Shown piece by piece: positions 47,580 through 58,146 of a stretch of 64,000 nucleotides of DNA. Below the pieces are notes generated by a model, which was not told the DNA's origin, searched no databases, and saw nothing but the letters and a program-made list of their open reading frames with translations. Numbering within the stretch: the first letter of the stretch is position 1; the number at the start of each line of letters is the position of its first letter. This stretch comes from an uncultured archaeon (GTDB taxonomy: Archaea > Aenigmatarchaeota > Aenigmatarchaeia > CG10238-14 > SCSR01): positions 9,546-73,545 of the forward strand of contig CAYJVM010000001.1 of assembly GCA_964373665.1 (NCBI GenBank), given 5' to 3'. A program made the translations under genes and the position numbers.

Positions 47580-47747
47580 ATGTTACAAGATCGCCCTTTA
47601 ACATGTGATAAATGTGGTCAATCAAGCAATTATCCCAAAAATGAAGCATATAAAGACGGTGTGACATGCAAAAATTGCAATAAGGAGATAGATACGACTA
47701 AACTAAAAGTTCTCGACGTGGTAAAAGCATTTAGAGAAGAAGACTAG
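47580..47747 (+). CDS. Small Zn-ribbon protein (55 aa)
   Basis: MLQDRPLTCDKCGQ...VTCKNCNKEI; below the track threshold; abuts the transposase gene. Confidence 0.3.
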   Translation: MLQDRPLTCDKCGQSSNYPKNEAYKDGVTCKNCNKEIDTTKLKVLDVVKAFREED

Positions 47748-49315
47748 GTATGAACAATCTCATAAAGAGATTTCAAGAATAGCTTAAAGGTAACTACCCT
47801 TTTTGCAGCGTCCTTTATTCCAAGTTCTAACATTACAAGTAGGTTGATTAATGTCCATAAATTGTATAGTGCAACCGAAAACAGAAAATAGAATAATCTT
47901 ATTGAATAATTGTTAGATGTTGTCTTAACTAAACCTTCTCTTTTCTTAACACGGTATCCAGTTTCTATTCCCCATCTCTTACCATACATTCTAGGCAGGT
48001 TTTCAATCAAATCCACATCGTGACTGTTAATTGGAATGTTGGTTGCTATCTTCATCAGACCTTTAGTTCCTTCAACCAGAACAAGGTTCTTTATGATAGC
48101 GTTGCCTCTCTTATAGTTATGAATAACAAATGGTGGTGATACAGTTTCTATAACTTTCTTAACGCCTCTGTCATCAGGCAGTGGTACCACATAATTCAAT
48201 TTCATTGACTGCAACAGGTTGAATATTTTCTCGTTAGCGAATCCTCTATCCATGTAAATCTTGTTGATCTTGATTTTCTTCTGAGTATATTCTAACAACT
48301 CTTTAACTAAATCAGCTTCTCTATCGAAGATGAAAACAGGGAAAGCACATAACGTAAACCTAGTACCGTTTTCTACAATATCAAGAGTAATGTACTTGAA
48401 GTATCTGATAGTACCGTGATCATATTTGCTGTTGACGATGTTGGGATGGTTAGGATCTCCATAATAATGTTGGAAAGTATAGTCAACTGCAACATCAAAC
48501 TTTCTCTTATTAAATTTTCCAGACCTTTTAGCTATCCTAAACAACTCATCCGAAACTTTGGTAAATATGGCCTTGGTAGATTTAGGGTCGTGCTTCTTCA
48601 GATGATAAAGAATTGTGTTGGAAGCTGGTGAAATGGAGCCATTCTTCTTGTAGGACAATGCTCCACCATTCGTGAAACTACCTTCCAATGCCGAATGTAC
48701 TAGAACATCTAATATAGTGTTTTTAGTGTATTTTGCGTTATGCTTTATGTCAAGTTTTATCTTAGGATATATTATCTGTCTTAATCTTTTGGAGAGTTCG
48801 CTTAATTTCTGCTCCTTTTGATATTGTACATTGGTTTCTTTAACTGGCTCTATTTTTTCTTCTATTTTCGGAATTTCTGTGTCGAAACTCAGATCGAATT
48901 TCTCGGATATTTCCCTAATTTTTTTGACTATCAGTTCTATAATTTCCTTTTCTTCCTGAATGAGCTTGTGAACAAGAAAATAGGAAAAGCTCCTTTGGTC
49001 AGGTACCATTAATGTGTTGGTTTCGTCTTTGTCAAAACCTAGATTAAGTGCGTCGTTTTCGTTTGACTTTAGATAATCCGATAGATTTTTGGAGGATTTA
49101 ATTCCTTTCAATTGTTTGTAAATCAAGGCTCTTATCAACGATAATTTGGAGAATCTTATCATTTCTTCATCTGGTATTATGTGACCTATCTCCAGTTTAG
49201 ATAGAAATTCAGATAACTTGATAGAGCTAACATTCTTTAAACTAACAAAATTCTTATATACAGTCTTTTCAATTTTACTAATGGGGATTGTTGCTGTCAT
49301 AGGTAACATCTCCAC
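47744..49315 (-). CDS. DDE transposase, IS4-superfamily (IS1634/ISH3-like size)
   Basis: 523 aa; C-terminal KRWGIETGYRVKKRE (Y..RW.IE....K signature of IS4-type DDE transposases). Confidence 0.7.
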   Translation of the reverse strand: MEMLPMTATIPISKIEKTVYKNFVSLKNVSSIKLSEFLSKLEIGHIIPDEEMIRFSKLSLIRALIYKQLKGIKSSKNLSDYLKSNENDALNLGFDKDETNTLMVPDQRSFSYFLVHKLIQEEKEIIELIVKKIREISEKFDLSFDTEIPKIEEKIEPVKETNVQYQKEQKLSELSKRLRQIIYPKIKLDIKHNAKYTKNTILDVLVHSALEGSFTNGGALSYKKNGSISPASNTILYHLKKHDPKSTKAIFTKVSDELFRIAKRSGKFNKRKFDVAVDYTFQHYYGDPNHPNIVNSKYDHGTIRYFKYITLDIVENGTRFTLCAFPVFIFDREADLVKELLEYTQKKIKINKIYMDRGFANEKIFNLLQSMKLNYVVPLPDDRGVKKVIETVSPPFVIHNYKRGNAIIKNLVLVEGTKGLMKIATNIPINSHDVDLIENLPRMYGKRWGIETGYRVKKREGLVKTTSNNYSIRLFYFLFSVALYNLWTLINLLVMLELGIKDAAKRVVTFKLFLKSLYEIVHT

Positions 49316-49496
49316 CAGAGGAGTCAGTTCACAAGGCTAGCTCCTCTGGCTTACTTATCCAATGGGATAAGATTATTAGTCCTTATCCATAGTCTTATCC
49401 ATAGGTATAATATATATGTACTAGTATTTAAGCTTATCGGTATGGCTATCGGTAGAAAGTATTTAAATATAATAAACGAATTACTTTTAGATTAAT

Positions 49497-49700
49497 ATGG
49501 AAGACGAAATATCCAAGAAAATTGTCAGTACCATTAAATCTTCAGACGAACCAATCGAAACAAAAGAGATAGAACAAAAAATCAAAGGTGTGTCTAGAGA
49601 TAAGATATTGTACAGATTGTTTAATTTGAGAGGTGAAGGAGTAATTAAAGGAAAACAAGTAGGCTCAGGTAAAGGTACTTGGATATGGTGGAAAAAGTAA
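49497..49700 (+). CDS. Small winged-helix protein upstream of the R-M gene (candidate controller/regulator)
   Basis: IETKEIEQKIKGVSRDKILYRLFNLRGEGVIKGKQ. Confidence 0.45.
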   Translation: MEDEISKKIVSTIKSSDEPIETKEIEQKIKGVSRDKILYRLFNLRGEGVIKGKQVGSGKGTWIWWKK

Positions 49701-49718
49701 ACTGCATCAGGAGATAAT

Positions 49719-52700
49719 ATGGTAGAAAAACCAGACTTTGTAGATTCCGTCTTGAACTCTTTTAAGAATATATTAGGAGAGGTAGAGAAAGGCTCATCTG
49801 AACACGATATCAGATACAAGTTTGTCAAGTATTTTCTCGAGGATGTACTAGGTTACGAACCAAGACTGATCAAATGGGAAAAGAAGAGAGCTGACTTGAC
49901 CATCATAGACGATAACAATTTTTCTGTAATAATGATAGAAACGAAAAGACCCCAAGAGGACATAGAGAAAGCATCGATAGAAGAACAGGCTTTCAAGTAT
50001 GAGGAGGGAACTACAAAATACATAGGACTGACTAATTTTTCTCGGTTCAAATTATGGGAAACTAAGGATTCTAAAAGAGAACTGAAGGCGGACATAGACT
50101 TTTCGAGACTAATAGAAAGAAAAAGTGAACTATCGACTGAGGATAAAGGTAATATACTATTTCTGAATAATCTCACCAAAGATCAAATTTTTGATGCAAG
50201 AAAATACGAGAAATTCGACGAAACATATGCTAAAATCGATATAACGAAAGACGTTGGATTTAGAAAATTGTTGGAGAAGCTTAATTTCATTGCCAATAAT
50301 CTTTTGCTGGGATATACGCTGAAAGCATTTGGAGAATACAAAGAAGGTTATGGTAGATACCTGGAAGAATTGAAGCAAGTCGAGAAAGTGTCTAATAATT
50401 CGCATAAAGAAATTAATCATGGTGTGGCCAAGTTCAAGCAAAAGCTAGAGGAAAAATATGAAAAATACAGGACATTTTCTGGCTATTATTTATGGAAGGA
50501 GTATTCGGGAAAAGAGAACATTACAGATGATGAGATAAAGGAAGTTTTCTGCAAAGAAACAATTTACGTATTCCTTAACAAGTTGCTCTTCCTAAGAATA
50601 TGCGAAGATAAGGGATTGCTTGAGAAGAATATTTCAAACGGTGGAATCGAAGAGTTAAGAGCTGTCCTCAAAAAGAGATTTGAAAAAGATATCTTAAACA
50701 AAGAAATACTAAAGCTGGCTTTTGAGAGTGCGAAAGGTCTGTACTCCCATTTTTACGAGACGGGTATCTTGGATTGGTTTAGAACTGGAGATGGTGAACT
50801 AAACGAGTTGTTGAACAGAGTGCTGTGGATAATGAATTCGTTCAACTTTAGACATGTTGACAGGGATATACTAGGCAACCTTTATGAAAAATACCTTCCC
50901 AGTAACGAAAGAAAAAGATTGGGGGAATTTTACACACCAGTTGAGGTTATAGACTACATTTTAACGTCTGTTGGATATACTTACAGCTATGATATTGAAA
51001 CTAAAGATTTGTTAGATCCAGCGTGTGGTTCAGGCGGTTTCTTAGTTAGAGGTACAAGAAGATTAATTAGCAGGTATTTGATGAAATTTGGTAAATCTGA
51101 CAAGAAAGAATTGAGAGATCCTAAAAATTGGAAGGAGATTGTTAGTAGATTGTCACCTGACGAAGCAAAAATAATTCTTGAATCTATTAAAGAACATATT
51201 TATGGTCTTGATGTCAATCCTTTTGCCTGCCACATTGCTGAGATGAACCTTCTTTTTCAAGTAGTAGATTTGTATCAGAAAGCTAGAGAAAAATATAGAG
51301 ATTACAAGTTAGGAAGATTCAAAATATATAGAACAGATTCTTTGGAAAAACCTAGTCAAAAACAGATTTTTGATTACACCCATTCGACATTCTTGGAAGA
51401 GCAGGAAGAGATCGATAAGATTAAGAGCAAGAAGTTTGATTTTGTTACGGGTAACCCACCATATATCCGCGTACAAATGTTGGATGAGAGAGTGAAGAAG
51501 TATATTACCGAGAATTACAAAACGGCTTATAGCAACTTTGATTTATATGTTATTTTTATTGAGCGTGGTCTGAATTGGCTTAAGGATAATGGGAATTTTG
51601 GATACATTACGTCCAATCAATTCATAAATAGAGAATATGGTAAAAAATTAAGAAAATATATTTTGGAAAATTCCAAAATCATAAGCATAATAGATTTCGG
51701 TGATTCTGGAGTATTCAAGGATGCTACAAATTATCCAATGATACTGATTTTTAAAAGGGGCACACAAAAATCTAATAGGTTCAAATTTATAAAAGTAAAG
51801 CAATCGAAAGATAATTTAATTGGAGATATTTTTTCCAAGTTTAAGGAAAAAGAATATAATGGTCCTTATTTTGATATTTTTGAAATTGAACAGAATAAAC
51901 TTTCCGAAGAAACATGGCAACTATTTTCAGGTACAATAATTAAAATTCTAGAAAAGCTAGAAAAGAATATTAAACTGAAGGATCTGTGTAGAGAAAATGG
52001 TGTAGTAGTTGGTGTACAAACAGGATTAAATGATGTTTATGTTGTAAATAAAGACACTATTAACAAATACAAATTAGAAAGCAGTTTAATCAAAAAGTTG
52101 TTAGACAGTAGAGATGTAAGACGATGGAAAATAAATCATAGTGGACTGTATTTAATATACCCTTATTACGAAAGGGGTGGAAAAACAATCTTGATTGATG
52201 AAAAGACATTGAAGTCTGATTTTTCGAACGTTTATTCATATTTACTTGAAAATAAAAATAAACTTATAAAACGATGGGGTGTGAAAAACTGTTGGTATGA
52301 ATTGCCAACCGCAAGAACTCTAAATTTCTTTGAACAGAAAAAAATTTTAACTCCGACCATAAGTAATTTTAACAACTTTGCCTTAGATACAAATGGACTT
52401 TTCTTTGCGAAAGGAGCAGGAGGAAGCTATGGAATTATATTAAAAAATGATAGCAAAGATAACTATCTTTACATTTTGGGTCTGATAAATTCCAGATTGT
52501 TAGAATTCTACTTAAAGCAATTTCTTCCTGTAAAAGCCGGTGGATGGTATGAATATATAGCAGCATATCTGGAAAAACTCCCTATCAAACTTCCAGAAAC
52601 TGCAGAGGAAAAGAAAATTACCAATCAGATAATCAAGAAAGTAGACGAAATTTTAGAATTGCATAAATCTGGAATTGTGGATATAGACACTGCACTTGAA

Positions 52701-53096
52701 AATGTAGAAACAGAGAAACTATGCAATTTACCAAAAATAACATTCAATATAAAAGATGATGCTAAATTTGAGAAAGTTAAAACAGAAGGAAACAAAATTT
52801 ACATCAATTCTCAGGATTTCATAGAGGTCAAAGACAAGAAACTTAAGGACTTTGTTGAAATGTATCTCAACTTTAACAGTGAAAAGTTATCTAAAGATAT
52901 CAAAAGTATGCTTATCAACATTCCTATTCCAAAATCCGATGAAATTCTAAAAGATGTAATAGCTAAAGGCGGTATCGATTATTCACAGATTAAAGAAGAA
53001 ATTAGAAAACTAGAGCAGGAAATTAACGATTTGGTTTATCAAATTTATGGAATAACTAAAGAAGAACAACATGTTATAGATAATAGTATTAAATAA
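49719..53096 (+). CDS. Type IIG restriction-modification enzyme (fused PD-(D/E)xK endonuclease, gamma-class N6-adenine methyltransferase and target-recognition domain; Eco57I/MmeI-like)
   Basis: N-terminal D..E.K (ADLTIIDD..VIMIETKRP); MTase motif I LDPACGSGGFLV and motif IV FDFVTGNPPYIRV; 1125 aa. Confidence 0.8.
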   Translation: MVEKPDFVDSVLNSFKNILGEVEKGSSEHDIRYKFVKYFLEDVLGYEPRLIKWEKKRADLTIIDDNNFSVIMIETKRPQEDIEKASIEEQAFKYEEGTTKYIGLTNFSRFKLWETKDSKRELKADIDFSRLIERKSELSTEDKGNILFLNNLTKDQIFDARKYEKFDETYAKIDITKDVGFRKLLEKLNFIANNLLLGYTLKAFGEYKEGYGRYLEELKQVEKVSNNSHKEINHGVAKFKQKLEEKYEKYRTFSGYYLWKEYSGKENITDDEIKEVFCKETIYVFLNKLLFLRICEDKGLLEKNISNGGIEELRAVLKKRFEKDILNKEILKLAFESAKGLYSHFYETGILDWFRTGDGELNELLNRVLWIMNSFNFRHVDRDILGNLYEKYLPSNERKRLGEFYTPVEVIDYILTSVGYTYSYDIETKDLLDPACGSGGFLVRGTRRLISRYLMKFGKSDKKELRDPKNWKEIVSRLSPDEAKIILESIKEHIYGLDVNPFACHIAEMNLLFQVVDLYQKAREKYRDYKLGRFKIYRTDSLEKPSQKQIFDYTHSTFLEEQEEIDKIKSKKFDFVTGNPPYIRVQMLDERVKKYITENYKTAYSNFDLYVIFIERGLNWLKDNGNFGYITSNQFINREYGKKLRKYILENSKIISIIDFGDSGVFKDATNYPMILIFKRGTQKSNRFKFIKVKQSKDNLIGDIFSKFKEKEYNGPYFDIFEIEQNKLSEETWQLFSGTIIKILEKLEKNIKLKDLCRENGVVVGVQTGLNDVYVVNKDTINKYKLESSLIKKLLDSRDVRRWKINHSGLYLIYPYYERGGKTILIDEKTLKSDFSNVYSYLLENKNKLIKRWGVKNCWYELPTARTLNFFEQKKILTPTISNFNNFALDTNGLFFAKGAGGSYGIILKNDSKDNYLYILGLINSRLLEFYLKQFLPVKAGGWYEYIAAYLEKLPIKLPETAEEKKITNQIIKKVDEILELHKSGIVDIDTALENVETEKLCNLPKITFNIKDDAKFEKVKTEGNKIYINSQDFIEVKDKKLKDFVEMYLNFNSEKLSKDIKSMLINIPIPKSDEILKDVIAKGGIDYSQIKEEIRKLEQEINDLVYQIYGITKEEQHVIDNSIK

Positions 53097-53102
53097 TATA
53101 AC

Positions 53103-53594
53103 TTATTTTGGAATATACTTAATTACTTTTACCAAACCCTTCCATTGTTTCACGGGAATCTTAACAAACTTATTAGATGCAATATAAGATTCTATACTTT
53201 TAGAACTTAGAGACTTTGATACAGATGTGCCTTTTAAAATTAGTGTAAATGTACCTAAATCACCTAAACTTGTAAATCTACAAATTTTCTTATCATAGTA
53301 CTGTCCCGCATACATAGAACATACTTCGTTGCGTATTTCTGAGTCCAAATTAAGAGTTAATATTTCATGAATTACACCATTAGCTATTACATCTCCTTCA
53401 CCACTGACACAAACCTCATAGTTTTCCATAGTAAACTCAGGAGGACATACAATCAAATCATCAAGTTGTGCTAATGCATTTTCAACAGCCGGTAGTGTAG
53501 CATCTATAACTTGATCTGCAACCCACATTTGAAAGAGAAATACAATTAGAGCTGTTATACTAATGCCACCTATTATCGGTATACCCCCTTTCAT
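53103..53594 (-). CDS. Membrane-anchored/secreted protein with four Cys
   Basis: N-terminal TM GGIPIIGGISITALIVFLF; last gene of a minus-strand string. Confidence 0.4.
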   Translation of the reverse strand: MKGGIPIIGGISITALIVFLFQMWVADQVIDATLPAVENALAQLDDLIVCPPEFTMENYEVCVSGEGDVIANGVIHEILTLNLDSEIRNEVCSMYAGQYYDKKICRFTSLGDLGTFTLILKGTSVSKSLSSKSIESYIASNKFVKIPVKQWKGLVKVIKYIPK

Positions 53595-53905
53595 TAAATC
53601 ATCTTTAATAAACTAGTCTAATTCCAACTTCAGCCTCTTTTATAGCATTATTTTCAACGAGTTTGGATAATCCCCACATCAACAAAAAGAAACCACAAAT
53701 GCTTGCTAGAGTGTATGTTGAACTATCATTCCGATATTCTTGCTGATAATAGTTCACGAGTTCACCTCCTGTAGCTCTGCATATTTTCTATGCCTTTTAG
53801 AAAAAGGAAGATGCATCATATTGTACGCATAATTCCATTGCTTTTCCGTCATGGATTTGAAACCTTTATTACAAATATTACAAACTCTTTTTGATTTCAT
53901 AACAT

Positions 53906-54310
53906 TCAACCTCTAGGTGTCCAAATTTCATTTGCGGATATTCCAAGTTGACGAAGTCTTTCCTTAACTGACTCTCTGCTAGAACTAGTATTACACGTTT
54001 TTGGGACAACTATATGGAATTCACTTCCAGTAGTTCTTGATCTGTTGTAAAAGGCAGTCCATTGTCTTTCTGTATGTTGATCAAATATAGAACTACATGT
54101 TTCAGCTTCTAAAATAATAAGACTTCTATTAACACCATTTTTATAACAAGTTAAATCTGGTATATAACCATTAATGGAATCCGGCCTAGAGTAACCGTCC
54201 AAATCAGCTTTGATATCTGTACACCCAAGACTTTTAAAATGATTTGCCATCATTTCAATAAGTTGTATATGTTCTTTACTCTCTGCTGAGGTTCTAGTCA
54301 TAAAAATCAT
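53906..54310 (-). CDS. Hjc-like PD-(D/E)xK-fold protein, paralogue 2 (E-x-E-T variant)
   Basis: IQLIEMMANHFKSLGCTDIKADLDGY...PDLTCYKNGVNRSLIILEAET aligns to Hjc ERELv.lLek.GfaVvRsAGS...vDliA.ngk..l.IEvK; catalytic-position Lys replaced by Glu. Confidence 0.45.
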   Translation of the reverse strand: MIFMTRTSAESKEHIQLIEMMANHFKSLGCTDIKADLDGYSRPDSINGYIPDLTCYKNGVNRSLIILEAETCSSIFDQHTERQWTAFYNRSRTTGSEFHIVVPKTCNTSSSRESVKERLRQLGISANEIWTPRG

Positions 54311-54600
54311 CTCATACGTCTAACCCTAACCTCTGTATTTGGTCTATTTTTGGCATATTTCCTAAGGAGTCTCCTCTGATTAATATCTCTCCTGAAAGAA
54401 GTTGGGGTCTCAACTTCGACTATTCTAGTCTTCTTCCCTTTTTTTGCAATTATATCGGGTCTTACTGAATGACTGTGTACTCTAAGTGTTCTAGGTTTAT
54501 CGAATCCAGAAACATCTGCATGTACTCTCCAACCATAACTTTCTAACGCAGCAGCTCTTCTAATTACAGATTTATCGTGCTTCGAGATTTTACGGCTCAT
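54307..54600 (-). CDS. Hjc-like PD-(D/E)xK-fold protein, paralogue 1 (E-x-E-T variant)
   Basis: RRAAALESYGWRVHADVSGF...RPDIIAKKGKKTRIVEVET; same pattern as its neighbour; ATGA overlap. Confidence 0.45.
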   Translation of the reverse strand: MSRKISKHDKSVIRRAAALESYGWRVHADVSGFDKPRTLRVHSHSVRPDIIAKKGKKTRIVEVETPTSFRRDINQRRLLRKYAKNRPNTEVRVRRMR

Positions 54601-54723
54601 TTTCTTTCAATATTAATTATAAGCTAACACTTAAATACTTTGTTTTTGCATGTAGTTTGCGTATACTAGGTATAATATGGGGAAAGAACATACTGATATA
54701 AGGCTATAAAAGAAAATAATAAT

Positions 54724-55101
54724 ATGGTTGTACGATATGTATCTAAATTTATTACTGATGTGCAACCAGAAAAACTAAAATCAGAAAGTAAGATCTTTGA
54801 CATCTCAGATAAAATATTTCATCCCCTCAGAATGTTAATACTTTTTGATTTGGCTAAACACAAAGAAGCTTCTTTTCAGGAACTTAAAACTGCAACCCGT
54901 ACGACAGACGGTAATCTTGCAAGCCATCTAAGAGCTTTGGAGGAGAACGGTTTTGTTCGATATAAAAAGGAAATTAATGGAAAGCGTGTTATAACTTTTT
55001 ACCAACTAACAGAGTCTGGAAAAGACGAATTAAATAAACTAATCGAAGTGTTAACCCAACATCTCGAAAAACTTAAAGGTGATTCAGATGACAGATATTA
55101 A
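54724..55101 (+). CDS. Winged-helix (ArsR/TrmB-like) transcriptional regulator
   Basis: LRMLILFDLAKHKEASFQELKTATRTTDGNLASHLRALEENGFVRYKK..GKRVITFYQLTESG. Confidence 0.55.
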   Translation: MVVRYVSKFITDVQPEKLKSESKIFDISDKIFHPLRMLILFDLAKHKEASFQELKTATRTTDGNLASHLRALEENGFVRYKKEINGKRVITFYQLTESGKDELNKLIEVLTQHLEKLKGDSDDRY

Positions 55102-55552
55102 AAAAATATTAGCATGTTTAAACTATTTAGGAGTTTCATCTAATTTGAATTATTTTGCAAAGAGAATGCAAATACAAAAACTTATTTATTTAATACAAAT
55201 TTTTGGTGTAGATTTAGATTATAAATTTAATTGGTATCTTCACGGACCTTATAGTTCACCTTTGACTAAAATATTATTTGAGAATAAAAATATACCACGC
55301 GATTCGAGTAGTCTTACTCAAGGTGAAACTGAAAAATTAAGTAAGTTGAAAGAATTTCTAGGCGAAGATTTGCAATCGTCACATAATTTAGAAATCATAG
55401 TTTCCCTGCATTTTCTATTAATGGTAGGCAAATACCATCATAAAAGCGATAAAGAAATGATCGAACTTTTAAAAGAAAAGAAACCTTTCATTCCTCCAGA
55501 AAAAATAGAGAAATACTATGAAAAGATCAAGAAATTAATAGAAGAAAAATAA
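55079..55552 (+). CDS. Panacea-domain (DUF4065, SocA/PanA-like antitoxin domain) protein
   Basis: IQKLIYLIQIFGVDLDYKFNWYLHGPYSSPL matches the KLqKLLY...W..GPv signature; 23-nt overlap with the upstream wHTH gene. Confidence 0.5.
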   Translation: MIQMTDIKKILACLNYLGVSSNLNYFAKRMQIQKLIYLIQIFGVDLDYKFNWYLHGPYSSPLTKILFENKNIPRDSSSLTQGETEKLSKLKEFLGEDLQSSHNLEIIVSLHFLLMVGKYHHKSDKEMIELLKEKKPFIPPEKIEKYYEKIKKLIEEK

Positions 55553-55586
55553 ACAGTTGACTTTTACTAAAACATACCATTTTAAT

Positions 55587-55718
55587 CTGAAATAAAGTTG
55601 TCGTCTTTTATCCTTATATTTACGTTACTCCGTTTTTCTCTAGCTTTTAATCTTACACCAAACATTTCTGATAAATAGTTCAATTCCTGATACGATGTAG
55701 CCTTCTTTTTCATTAATG
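55587..55718 (-). pseudogene. Duplicated 3'-terminal fragment (~40 codons) of the double-HTH gene at 56598..57242
   Basis: The fragment translates as MKKKATSYQELNYLSEMFGVRLKAREKRSNVNIRIKDDNFISD. The intact C-terminus reads KKKTTSYQELNYLSQVFGIKLKAVEKRNTVNTTIKEISQVSKV. DNA identity is ~80% over ~130 bp. Confidence 0.6.
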
Positions 55719-55749
55719 ATATTTATTTGGATTTAATCAACTTCTATAA

Positions 55750-56403
55750 ATGATTGTAGGCATCGATAGTGCTAATAATTTGACATGCACAGGTATAATA
55801 TCTGGCAACGAATTGGAGATAACCGATTTTTACGAAGAACTTAGAACAATCTTTGCAAAAAGGAAAGTATATCCGCCATTCAAATGGGGCAATCTCACGG
55901 AAAATACTAGAAACTCATGTAAAAATGAGATAGAAGAATTGTTCAATAACCACGATTCCAAACTGAAATTCAACGTATTGTTCCATAAAAAGCCTCTTTC
56001 CATATCCAAAAAGGAAGTTTTGTTTGACATATTGCCAACATCCATTTCGGAAAATCTGGCAGAATGGATTAAAAACATTTCAGGATTTGTTATATTCGAA
56101 ATAGACAATGATTATAATATCAAAAACAAAAATACGCATGATTTCATTGAGAGCTTATTCAAGAGAATTATACCTACTCTTACGGACAAAATAATAACGA
56201 TCAGACGAGAACATGGTGTGCATAAGGTCACTATTAAGAAAAAAGTTGGTCCTAAAGACAGAAGCACAATTCATTTGGCAGGACGGGTTTCCAATGTCAA
56301 AGATTCGAGATCCATTCAGATAATAGACGTAATTCTAGGATATGTATTGAACAGAAAATGCAAATTTAGAAAAGATAAGCTGTATATTAGAACAATTTGT
56401 TGA
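55750..56403 (+). CDS. Hypothetical protein flanked by direct repeats (candidate toxin/effector; possible RNase-H-like fold)
   Basis: MIVGIDSANN.., ..IFEIDNDY.., ..IQIIDVILG resemble D/E/D of RuvC-like folds. This reading is speculative. Confidence 0.35.
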   Translation: MIVGIDSANNLTCTGIISGNELEITDFYEELRTIFAKRKVYPPFKWGNLTENTRNSCKNEIEELFNNHDSKLKFNVLFHKKPLSISKKEVLFDILPTSISENLAEWIKNISGFVIFEIDNDYNIKNKNTHDFIESLFKRIIPTLTDKIITIRREHGVHKVTIKKKVGPKDRSTIHLAGRVSNVKDSRSIQIIDVILGYVLNRKCKFRKDKLYIRTIC

Positions 56404-56597
56404 AAAAATTAAGATTGCTCCTCGCCTGTCGGCAAAGGAGTGAGTTTGTAGGCATTCCCAAGTCAACGCCCATAGGGGTCATAACTTGAGAACTGAAACT
56501 CTAATTATTAATACGGTACAGTAATATATAAAAGCACATCATTCGAAGCCTTTTAAGCTTTTCTGGTAAGCTACTTAAACATTCTAATTTGAGACAG

Positions 56598-57242
56598 TTA
56601 AACTTTTGAAACTTGGCTAATCTCTTTTATTGTGGTGTTAACAGTATTTCTCTTCTCTACAGCCTTTAATTTTATACCAAATACCTGTGATAAGTAATTC
56701 AGTTCTTGATAAGACGTAGTCTTCTTTTTCATCAACTTTAAAACTTCCTTCAACGCTTCTCCATTTTTATCTTGTAAAAAACAAACAGTCACACAAAACT
56801 TGCCCTTAAACAACCTAACCCTCCTGATGTTCAATTGGCTAGTCAAACTTCTTACAGCTCTAAGGTACGAATGTTTTTTCTTAGGCACTATAAAATACCC
56901 TTTATCAGTCAGTTCAGACAACACTTCCATGATAGGAGTACTACCAAACCTTCTGACAGAACCTCTGAGGTCATATGTCAGTAGATAGACAGTCTGTCTG
57001 TGAATCCCGAACATTTTAGCCAGTTCCAGAATATCAGTACCTTCATTAAAGAGTTTCCTTATCTCTTCCTTCTCTTCTGTGGTTAGTCTTCTAATCTGTC
57101 GTGGCAAGTCATCTGTATACCGTAAAACTTGCCATTTTTGGACACCTAGCTTTCTAGATATTTCCAATAGCTTGAAACCTCTTTTGTAGAGTTCTCTGAT
57201 CTGGTTAATGGTCTCGGCAGATAACTGTGATTTTCTAGGCAT
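56598..57242 (-). CDS. Double helix-turn-helix protein (transposase N-terminal-domain-like; no catalytic domain)
   Basis: Two resolvase/Tc1-type HTH repeats: INQIRELYKRGFKLLEISRKLGVQKWQVLRY and KEEIRKLFNEGTDILELAKMFGIHRQTVYLLTY. Confidence 0.45.
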   Translation of the reverse strand: MPRKSQLSAETINQIRELYKRGFKLLEISRKLGVQKWQVLRYTDDLPRQIRRLTTEEKEEIRKLFNEGTDILELAKMFGIHRQTVYLLTYDLRGSVRRFGSTPIMEVLSELTDKGYFIVPKKKHSYLRAVRSLTSQLNIRRVRLFKGKFCVTVCFLQDKNGEALKEVLKLMKKKTTSYQELNYLSQVFGIKLKAVEKRNTVNTTIKEISQVSKV

Positions 57243-57433
57243 GAGAAGAGCTTCTGTAATGCCTTTAAAAGCGATTTCTATACTCCATTATGATTTGGTA
57301 AAATTCGAGCAGAAAAATACTTTATTCTTGAACTCGGAATTTTCAAATTCTGCGTCTATTCGCCCTAAATCTCAAGAATTTGAGCTAGATTGGTAAATAA
57401 TTACTTATAGATCTACTGTTTCATGTTGATTTC

Positions 57434-57988
57434 ATGGCATACTCTTACAGAATGTTAAGGAAACTGATATTGGACAAGATAGCTCCAAATCACGACGCTG
57501 TCATCGAAGGCGGTATAGGAAACAATTTCCAAAGATTCCACTATTTCCGGCAATATGGATACAGAGGCTTGTATTTTGGAGTGGATGTGAAAAGGCCAAA
57601 TGAAGAGATACCAGAAGGCTTGACCTACCTGCAGGCAGACTGTTTCGACGAGGATTCTATGATAAATTACATGCTTGGCTTTAGGGTGAAGAATCCTTTC
57701 TTTGTCACAAATGCGGCTCTGGTCGACTGCCTACTTAACGGTTCCAATAGTTACAGAATGGTTGATGTTGTGGATGCCATGACTTTAATTTGCGGAGCAC
57801 AGATGCATCTGAAACCATTGAAAAACTTTTCGCCGAGAGAATTAAGGAAGTATGCGAGAACCGGTAGTCACACTGAAGATTATAGAAAGTTGGCGGAATT
57901 CCTGGAAGAAAGCAAAAGGGCCGGTTGGGAATATTATATCGAAGGCGGTATAGTCCTGCTCAATAAAAACAACTCTTTTCCAGACTGA
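57434..57988 (+). CDS. Hypothetical protein, possible small Rossmann/SAM-MTase-like fold
   Basis: VIEGGIGNN (G-rich loop) then FGVDV; weak. Confidence 0.3.
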   Translation: MAYSYRMLRKLILDKIAPNHDAVIEGGIGNNFQRFHYFRQYGYRGLYFGVDVKRPNEEIPEGLTYLQADCFDEDSMINYMLGFRVKNPFFVTNAALVDCLLNGSNSYRMVDVVDAMTLICGAQMHLKPLKNFSPRELRKYARTGSHTEDYRKLAEFLEESKRAGWEYYIEGGIVLLNKNNSFPD

Positions 57989-58146
57989 ACGTATAAAAGG
58001 TTTTGCTGCGTTATAGCAATGTAGAATCCATTTAAGCTTTTCCATAGAAACGGCAATACCCCAAAATTTTCTATAGGAAATATAATTGCCTATGAGAATT
58101 TCGTGTAAATTTATAAACTCACAACTACCATAGTTTTTAGATTGTC

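Follow-up and report, generated by a model that had tools for sequence, protein, structure and literature searches.

Which of its neighbours does a small protein with an antitoxin-like motif act upon, when its gene overlaps that of a winged-helix (wHTH) DNA-binding protein and is followed at some distance by an ORF of no recognized family? This question is raised by three plus-strand ORFs of an archaeal contig, which were analysed together with the 64 kb of DNA that surround them (the window). In a preliminary description of the locus, the second ORF (ORF2) had been called a Panacea-domain (DUF4065, PF13274) antitoxin and the third (ORF3) its toxin. The positions of all three ORFs were reproduced, and so was the 23-nt overlap between the wHTH gene and ORF2, which applies to a GTG start of ORF2; in the public protein P0001 translation begins at the ATG at 55088, leaving an overlap of 14 nt. 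The wHTH assignment was confirmed as well. The protein scored 68.5 bits against HTH_34 (PF13601), for which the curated cut-off is 27 bits, and gave weaker matches to HxlR, ArsR and MarR profiles. The features of the locus are collected in Table 1.

Table 1. Features of the wHTH–ORF2 locus and its surroundings (positions in the window)
Feature	Position	Strand	Remarks
Type IIG restriction-modification gene	49719..53096		PADLOC 9.8e-76
Divergent small ORF, distal	53906..54310	-	PD-(D/E)xK nuclease-like by eye
Divergent small ORF, proximal	54307..54600	-	PD-(D/E)xK nuclease-like by eye
Intergenic region	54601..54723		between divergent gene pair (54307–54600, -) and wHTH gene; sequence read
Winged-helix (HTH_34 / ArsR-MarR-like) DNA-binding protein, 125 aa	54724..55101	+	Pfam HTH_34 5.5e-19; first cassette gene
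ORF2, stand-alone YwgA-like protein, 154 aa (157 aa from GTG 55079)	55088..55552	+	second cassette gene
43-aa ORF	55582..55713	-	coding content of upstream repeat copy; called as gene in public contig
Repeat, upstream copy, 113 nt, direct	55604..55716		repeat search and alignment
ORF3, 217 aa, orphan gene	55750..56403	+	no family match; self-match only
Tandem HTH_7/HTH_38 protein, 214 aa	56598..57242	-	convergent with ORF3; repeat source; Pfam HTH_7 3.5e-10
Repeat, downstream copy	56623..56735		inside 3' end of HTH gene 56598–57242

The GC content around the locus is 0.31–0.37, compared with 0.42–0.47 elsewhere, and this low-GC stretch, which spans 47.7–58.1 kb, contains a weakly DDE-transposase-like gene besides the Type IIG restriction-modification gene. 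Genes for ribosomal protein S8e, an LSM protein and NurA are found nearby. Together with the origin of the nearest ORF2 relatives (see below), these genes suggest that the host is an archaeon, probably a member of the Nitrososphaeria or of a related group. No structured RNA was detected between 47 and 59 kb in a search against Rfam at E ≤ 1. Scanning of 54.3–57.5 kb yielded no terminator-like sites, sigma-70 and terminator scans being uninformative for an archaeon. The intergenic region in front of the wHTH gene is presumed to hold the promoter and operator of the wHTH–ORF2 operon.

A QKLxY…W.HGP motif, on which the Panacea call was based, is present in ORF2 ('…RMQIQKLIYLIQ…NWYLHGPYSS…'), and its core residues Q30, K31, W49, Y50, G53, P54 and Y55 were invariant or nearly so among 88 relatives. 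The AlphaFold model of the ORF2 monomer was confident (pLDDT 86.5) and shows a helix carrying QKLIY (residues 26–41), followed by a beta-hairpin carrying HGPY (residues 51–58). The Panacea fold is described as a central helix followed by a small beta-sheet with a conserved GPV motif (PMC8832971). The profile search with PF13274 that had been proposed as a check of the call returned no match to ORF2 even at E ≤ 10, and 0 of the 88 family members matched at E ≤ 1. These searches rule out membership of ORF2 in PF13274. In fold, the ORF2 model resembled a viral Panacea protein only weakly (E 1.1, probability 0.60, TM 0.37–0.44).

A profile built from four sequences retrieved 2880 representative clusters at E ≤ 1e-3, many members of which carry the JGI name "uncharacterized protein YwgA". 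These YwgA-like proteins are mostly stand-alone and 150–170 aa long. A Pfam domain was found on none of 120 proteins among the matches listed, and among ten longer family members there was neither an N-terminal HTH fusion nor a fused wHTH–YwgA protein. ORF2 matches the YwgA-like profile over its full length, including the invariant pattern R…QK…WY.GPY…E…S…KP. Comparison of the ORF2 model with solved structures gave a single outstanding match, the C-terminal domain of DarG from M. tuberculosis as seen in complex with DarT. A profile of the 88 sequences reached DarG at the sequence level (7yk3_B, E 3.7e-4) with co-linear QKLxY…GPYS and ELLAS blocks, whereas the four-sequence profile returned only antibody noise from the PDB. 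Both the NCBIfam (8.6e-7) and the PADLOC (1.8e-9) model of DarG were matched by ORF2 in their C-terminal part, and that part of the NCBIfam model was matched by 74 of the 88 family members.

Of the features that define DarG, the C-terminal DarT-binding helical domain is thus present in ORF2. On the other hand, the match to this domain covers all 154 residues, no Macro domain was found, and the score against the NCBIfam DarG equivalog was 28.5 bits, far under its cut-off of 250 bits. Nor was any PADLOC DarT match obtained among the neighbouring genes (the wHTH gene, the 43-aa ORF, ORF3 and the HTH_7 gene). Because the macrodomain and a darT gene are both absent, ORF2 is not a DarG. According to a paper of 2026 (PMC13621843), DUF4065 proteins and the DarG C-terminal domain share homology, and on that basis a label such as "Panacea-like superfamily" can be defended for ORF2. 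The label "Panacea/PF13274 member" is not defensible as judged from the profile comparisons. ORF2 is better placed in the YwgA-like family, and the defensible description is a YwgA-like protein clearly homologous to the C-terminal domain of DarG, with no more than a distant superfamily relationship to Panacea. This identity and the operon structure, taken together, are held with high confidence. Of the antitoxin-type reading, the helical binding domain with its QKLxY and GP(Y/V) elements and the overlapping wHTH gene remain; the PF13274 membership and the partnership with ORF3 do not.

That partnership had been proposed with ORF2 as a PanA-type antitoxin and ORF3 as its cognate toxin, possibly a RuvC-like nuclease. 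ORF3 is the next gene on the same strand, and as a long ORF in AT-rich DNA it is taken to be a real gene. Panacea-type antitoxins swap partners, many of which are unannotated (PMC8832971), and ORF3 gave a marginal match to the PADLOC candidate PDC-M04A (E 0.0025), both of which would suit a toxin. The remaining evidence argues against this model. ORF3 found only itself in a database of 5.8 billion proteins, has no relatives in viral contigs and occurs in 0 of 56 homologous loci; downstream of the ORF2 homologues with the highest identity (41–51%) there are unrelated genes or none. The putative D/E/D site was not supported by any profile match to a nuclease in Pfam, NCBIfam, PHROGs or PADLOC, the first three of which gave no match at all, and the single-sequence AlphaFold model of the ORF3 monomer (pLDDT 41.8) was too poor for a fold search. 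PanAT loci have been delimited by a spacing of at most 100 nt and by conservation in at least two species (PMC8832971). ORF2 and ORF3 fall outside both limits, as the gap between them is 197 nt and contains the conserved opposite-strand 43-aa ORF, and the pair recurs in no related locus. The two findings named beforehand as speaking against the call, the lack of a DUF4065 match and the absence of ORF3 from homologous loci, were both obtained. A role of ORF3 as the cognate toxin of ORF2 is thus very unlikely; ORF3 is an unrelated orphan that lies downstream by chance and is not a conserved partner of ORF2.

ORF3 had further been described as a repeat-flanked cassette. The direct repeat is real, its two 113-nt copies on either side of ORF3 being 73% identical, but it does not mark a cassette boundary. 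The 43-aa ORF within the upstream copy is a paralogue of the C-terminal 44 residues of the convergent HTH_7 protein (62–64% identity by tblastn). Comparison of the two copies gave a pN of 0.185 and a pS of 0.83, the latter saturated, which indicates that both have long been maintained as coding sequence. By this measure the repeat is an old paralogous coding sequence that purifying selection has preserved. Ends of a recent att-like element or cassette were considered and rejected, given saturation at synonymous sites together with conservation of the protein. The HTH_7 protein also matched the NCBIfam Cbp1 model, under its cut-off (5.6e-9); the gene has no homologue in the related loci and no relatives in viral contigs.

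The neighbourhoods of other family members offer a view of the partner genes. Neighbouring genes were clustered in 57 loci encoding YwgA-like proteins, and two arrangements that do not overlap were dominant. In 30 of the 57 loci, mostly bacterial with a few archaeal ones, the YwgA-like gene is paired with a gene for an HD + HD_assoc_2 protein of 410–530 aa, which almost always lies immediately downstream, frequently with a 20-nt overlap. This protein is dGTPase/SAMHD1-like by its motif and by weak PADLOC dGTPase matches. In B. subtilis, ywgA adjoins the HD-domain gene ywfO; no functional account of YwgA or YwfO was found in the literature. The second arrangement has a homologue of the wHTH gene directly in front of the YwgA-like gene, at distances of −23 to +20 nt. 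It was seen in 14–15 loci of Nitrososphaeria, Bathyarchaeia and Methanomethylicia, Nitrosopumilus chromosomes included; the first two of these groups also hold the nearest relatives of ORF2. The pairwise distances of the wHTH and YwgA-like proteins co-vary (Mantel r 0.76, p 2e-4), indicating that the pair is inherited as a unit, and no third conserved gene was found in the wHTH-linked loci. Thus, the functional unit is the operon formed by the HTH_34 wHTH gene and the overlapping YwgA-like gene, which is conserved and whose members co-vary. Residues R26, Q30, K31, G53-P54-Y55, E102, S106 and K132 are conserved throughout the family and unchanged across the partner types. Their role may be one common to the whole family, such as the recruitment of a ligand or of a protease as in SocA, rather than partner binding.

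The HD partner also bears on ORF3. With HD partner proteins as queries, tblastn gave two weak matches inside ORF3 (E 0.17 and 1.1), in frame, co-linear and resembling the tail of the HD protein. The idea that ORF3 is a degenerate HD-associated domain was rejected when an HMM built from 26 HD-family sequences scored it at noise (0.6 bits, rank 9 of 364 ORFs).

In a neighbour-joining tree, the wHTH-linked members form one archaeal clade that groups among the HD-linked members, suggesting that an HD partner was lost. This leads to the main rival of the reading preferred below, namely that the cassette is an orphan antitoxin acting in trans. The pair would be a split HTH–Panacea-type antitoxin whose cis-encoded toxin has disappeared and which neutralises an unlinked or incoming toxin, for instance a viral or plasmid-borne HD dNTPase-like or DarT-like protein, as a form of anti-addiction or anti-defence immunity, the wHTH protein serving only for autoregulation. 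Besides the position of the clade in the tree, it agrees with the HD-domain enzyme being the partner of most family members, with the variable, island-like contexts of the cassette and with HTH–Panacea fusions being common antitoxin architectures; a count of 343 Panacea antitoxins with a fused HTH domain has been published (PMC8832971). However, no HD-family gene is present in the 64-kb window or in the flanks of about 10 kb of any wHTH-linked locus, and an intact cassette kept without a toxin across several archaeal classes requires a selective explanation. An orphan antitoxin is considered rather unlikely.

The best explanation overall, held with a little less than even confidence, is a two-gene operon of a wHTH protein and a DarG-tail-like protein, in which the latter modulates DNA binding by the former. 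Proteins of the DarG-tail fold would act by binding and masking a partner encoded in the same operon, as DarG does with DarT, and for most YwgA-like proteins the masked partner is probably the HD-domain dNTPase-like enzyme. By the same neighbourhood logic the wHTH protein, as the only conserved partner in the archaeal clade, is the most likely binding partner there. The YwgA-like protein of this clade would then modulate DNA binding of the wHTH protein as a co-repressor or anti-repressor switch, and the wHTH protein would control its own operon and perhaps the divergent neighbouring genes too. That ORF2 binds and tunes the wHTH protein in this specific way is proposed tentatively, by analogy with DarTG. 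Conservation of the operon would be expected just as much if the wHTH protein were a transcriptional regulator only and the target of the YwgA-like protein were unlinked. With respect to its setting, the locus is best read as a self-contained regulatory or neutraliser cassette, made up of the wHTH and DarG-tail-like genes, in a low-GC defence island.

According to Deep et al. (2023), as cited in PMC13621843, the C-terminal domain of DarG blocks DarT by binding to it in the manner of ssDNA (ssDNA mimicry). Such mimicry is also compatible with the pair being toxin-antitoxin-like in itself: the wHTH protein could inhibit growth as a promiscuous repressor or nucleoid binder, with the YwgA-like protein as a DNA-mimic antitoxin. 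The neighbourhood logic used for Panacea, which predicts a toxin in the conserved gene found within 100 nt, would here point to the wHTH protein. Yet winged helices of the HTH_34/ArsR type are ordinary regulators, and the wHTH-first gene order is that of an antitoxin or regulator, so that a toxic wHTH protein appears unlikely.

The two small ORFs that diverge from the operon were considered as real partners, controlled or neutralised by the cassette, since the 123-nt intergenic region is common to them and the wHTH gene. They gave a weak match to an AHJR-like restriction-endonuclease fold (E 0.012), and the divergent neighbours are likewise of a conflict type (E2/JAB/E1 class) in 6 of 15 related loci. 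However, the nuclease assignment is below threshold, and the small ORFs are not conserved in any of the related loci. The two ORFs were also compared with each other as possible paralogues, a relation that was discarded as no mutual similarity was detectable. A partnership of these ORFs with the cassette is the least probable of the explanations weighed here.

Beyond this locus, a DarG-tail-like lineage with HD and wHTH partners is a more interesting lead than the single operon. In its widest form, which at present is speculative and rather improbable, the YwgA-like family would be a second, hitherto undescribed lineage of neutralisers that promiscuously mask their partners, with Panacea and the DarG tail as its sisters, and would have changed its partner from an HD effector in bacteria to a wHTH protein in the archaeal clade. 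In bacteria, a YwgA-like protein would restrain an HD-domain dNTPase-like effector, which would amount to a new toxin-antitoxin or defence family. In the archaeal clade, with the partner switched to a winged-helix regulator, it might act as a nucleic-acid-mimic anti-repressor, and the switch might govern neighbouring conflict genes, namely ubiquitin-like conjugation operons in several relatives and the small nuclease-like genes here. If so, the toxin-binding tail of DarG would not be peculiar to DarTG and would be the visible part of an extensive family of stand-alone proteins that comprises thousands of clusters, lacks a Pfam model and swaps partners in the manner of Panacea. Bacterial pairs of the YwgA/YwfO type would then provide a testable idea, an HD dNTPase-like enzyme checked by a neutraliser, and the archaeal variant would have a transcription factor as partner. 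For annotation, the locus illustrates that motif-based Panacea calls can fall on the neighbouring YwgA-like family, and that the rule by which the next gene downstream is the toxin fails for ORF2 and ORF3.

Compared with known systems, ORF2 shares the QKLxY, GPYS and ELLAS motifs with the DarG C-terminal domain (PDB ID: 7YK3), but it consists of this domain alone without the macrodomain, and its partner gene encodes a wHTH protein. Its modelled topology is compatible with that of the Panacea proteins PanA and SocA, a small helical domain in which a QKLxY helix is followed by a beta-hairpin with GP(V/Y), but it has GPYS in place of GPV and no conserved toxin neighbour. Frequent association with HTH domains and the swapping of partners between different genes are likewise common to Panacea and the YwgA-like family. 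ORF2 agrees with that family in length, motifs and stand-alone architecture, whereas its own clade differs from most members in the wHTH gene that precedes it and in the absence of an HD gene nearby. Some toxin-antitoxin systems comprise three genes, one of them a separate regulator, for example paaR–paaA–parE (PMC8832971). The wHTH–ORF2 operon lacks their conserved toxin gene, but it resembles them in that the DNA-binding regulator is a separate gene beside that of the neutralising protein. Taken as a pair, the wHTH protein and ORF2 reproduce the domain pairing of HTH–Panacea antitoxins, divided over two genes.

The wHTH gene, the YwgA-like gene ORF2 and the orphan gene ORF3 lie within a stretch of lowered GC content (window 47700–58100), where values of 0.31–0.37 were found compared with 0.42–0.47 in the flanks. 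Core genes border this stretch, with LSM and NurA on one side and ribosomal protein S8e on the other. A gene for a Type IIG restriction-methyltransferase and a weak DDE-transposase-like gene are found inside it, and the region at about 47700–58100 has the appearance of an island that is mobile or serves defence.

Positions of genes in the window and in related loci encoding YwgA-like proteins
Feature	Location	Positions	Strand
DDE-transposase-like gene (weak)	window	47744–49315	
Type IIG restriction-methyltransferase, 1125 aa	window	49719–53096	
Small ORF, first of pair	window	53906–54310	−
Small ORF, second of pair	window	54307–54600	−
43-aa ORF	window	55582–55713	−
HTH_7/HTH_38 tandem protein, 214 aa	window	56598–57242	−
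Neighbours with Prok-E2_E	L002	49–456	
Neighbours with Prok-E2_E, ThiF (E1) and Multi_ubiq	L057	3321–5405	
Weak JAB-like gene and 142–147 aa protein	L004	2851–3772	
Same	L008	3178–4081	
Same	L015	3157–4054	
JAB-like match only	L009	2531–2914	
AbiEii-like nucleotidyltransferase (Pfam 1.5e-5)	L009	5468–5986	−
Conserved 129-aa protein	L021	2595–2984	
Same	L022	5406–5795	
HD and HD_assoc_2 protein (example)	L020	5407–6843	
Same	L014	5509–6738	

Divergent to the wHTH gene is a pair of small ORFs that overlap each other by 4 nt. By eye, both contain a PD…E.E-type motif, and one of them gave a weak match to an AHJR-like restriction-endonuclease fold (E 0.012). The two ORFs are not similar in sequence, and the related loci contain homologues of neither.

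The last 44 residues of the tandem-HTH protein (window 56598–56735, minus strand) have a paralogue in the 43-aa ORF. Protein identity between the two is 62–64%, with a pN of 0.185 and a pS of 0.83, at which synonymous sites are saturated. Judged from these sequences, the ORF seems to be a maintained mini-gene that codes solely for the C-terminal module of the tandem-HTH protein. The match of the tandem-HTH protein to the CRISPR repeat-binding protein Cbp1 is sub-threshold (NCBIfam 5.6e-9, 36 bits against a cut-off of 140 bits). The spacer between ORF3 and the tandem-HTH gene (window 56404–56597) has a GC content visibly above its surroundings and contains a short stem, CTCCT…AGGAG. Rfam gave no match for it, and a terminator scan, uninformative for an archaeon, detected no site in it.

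Among the related loci, parts of a ubiquitin-like conjugation system are the divergent upstream neighbours in 6 of the 15 in which a wHTH gene directly precedes the YwgA-like gene. The 142–147 aa protein found in three of these is E2-like by eye alone and lacks a Pfam match. The window contains no ubiquitin-like conjugation genes. In L009, the AbiEii-like gene lies directly downstream of the wHTH–YwgA-like pair in convergent orientation; it is of toxin type but is not conserved across the other loci. The gene for the 129-aa protein comes after the YwgA-like gene in two loci of ANME/Syntrophoarchaeum type; this protein has no Pfam match and may represent a third partner type.

In 30 loci (L012–L052) a gene for a protein with HD and HD_assoc_2 domains comes after the YwgA-like gene, with a recurrent overlap of 20 nt, and PADLOC returned weak dGTPase matches for the HD protein. 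The pair has the look of a two-gene module not described before, which may be of a toxin-antitoxin or defence-like nature, and its arrangement corresponds to the ywgA/ywfO neighbourhood of B. subtilis.
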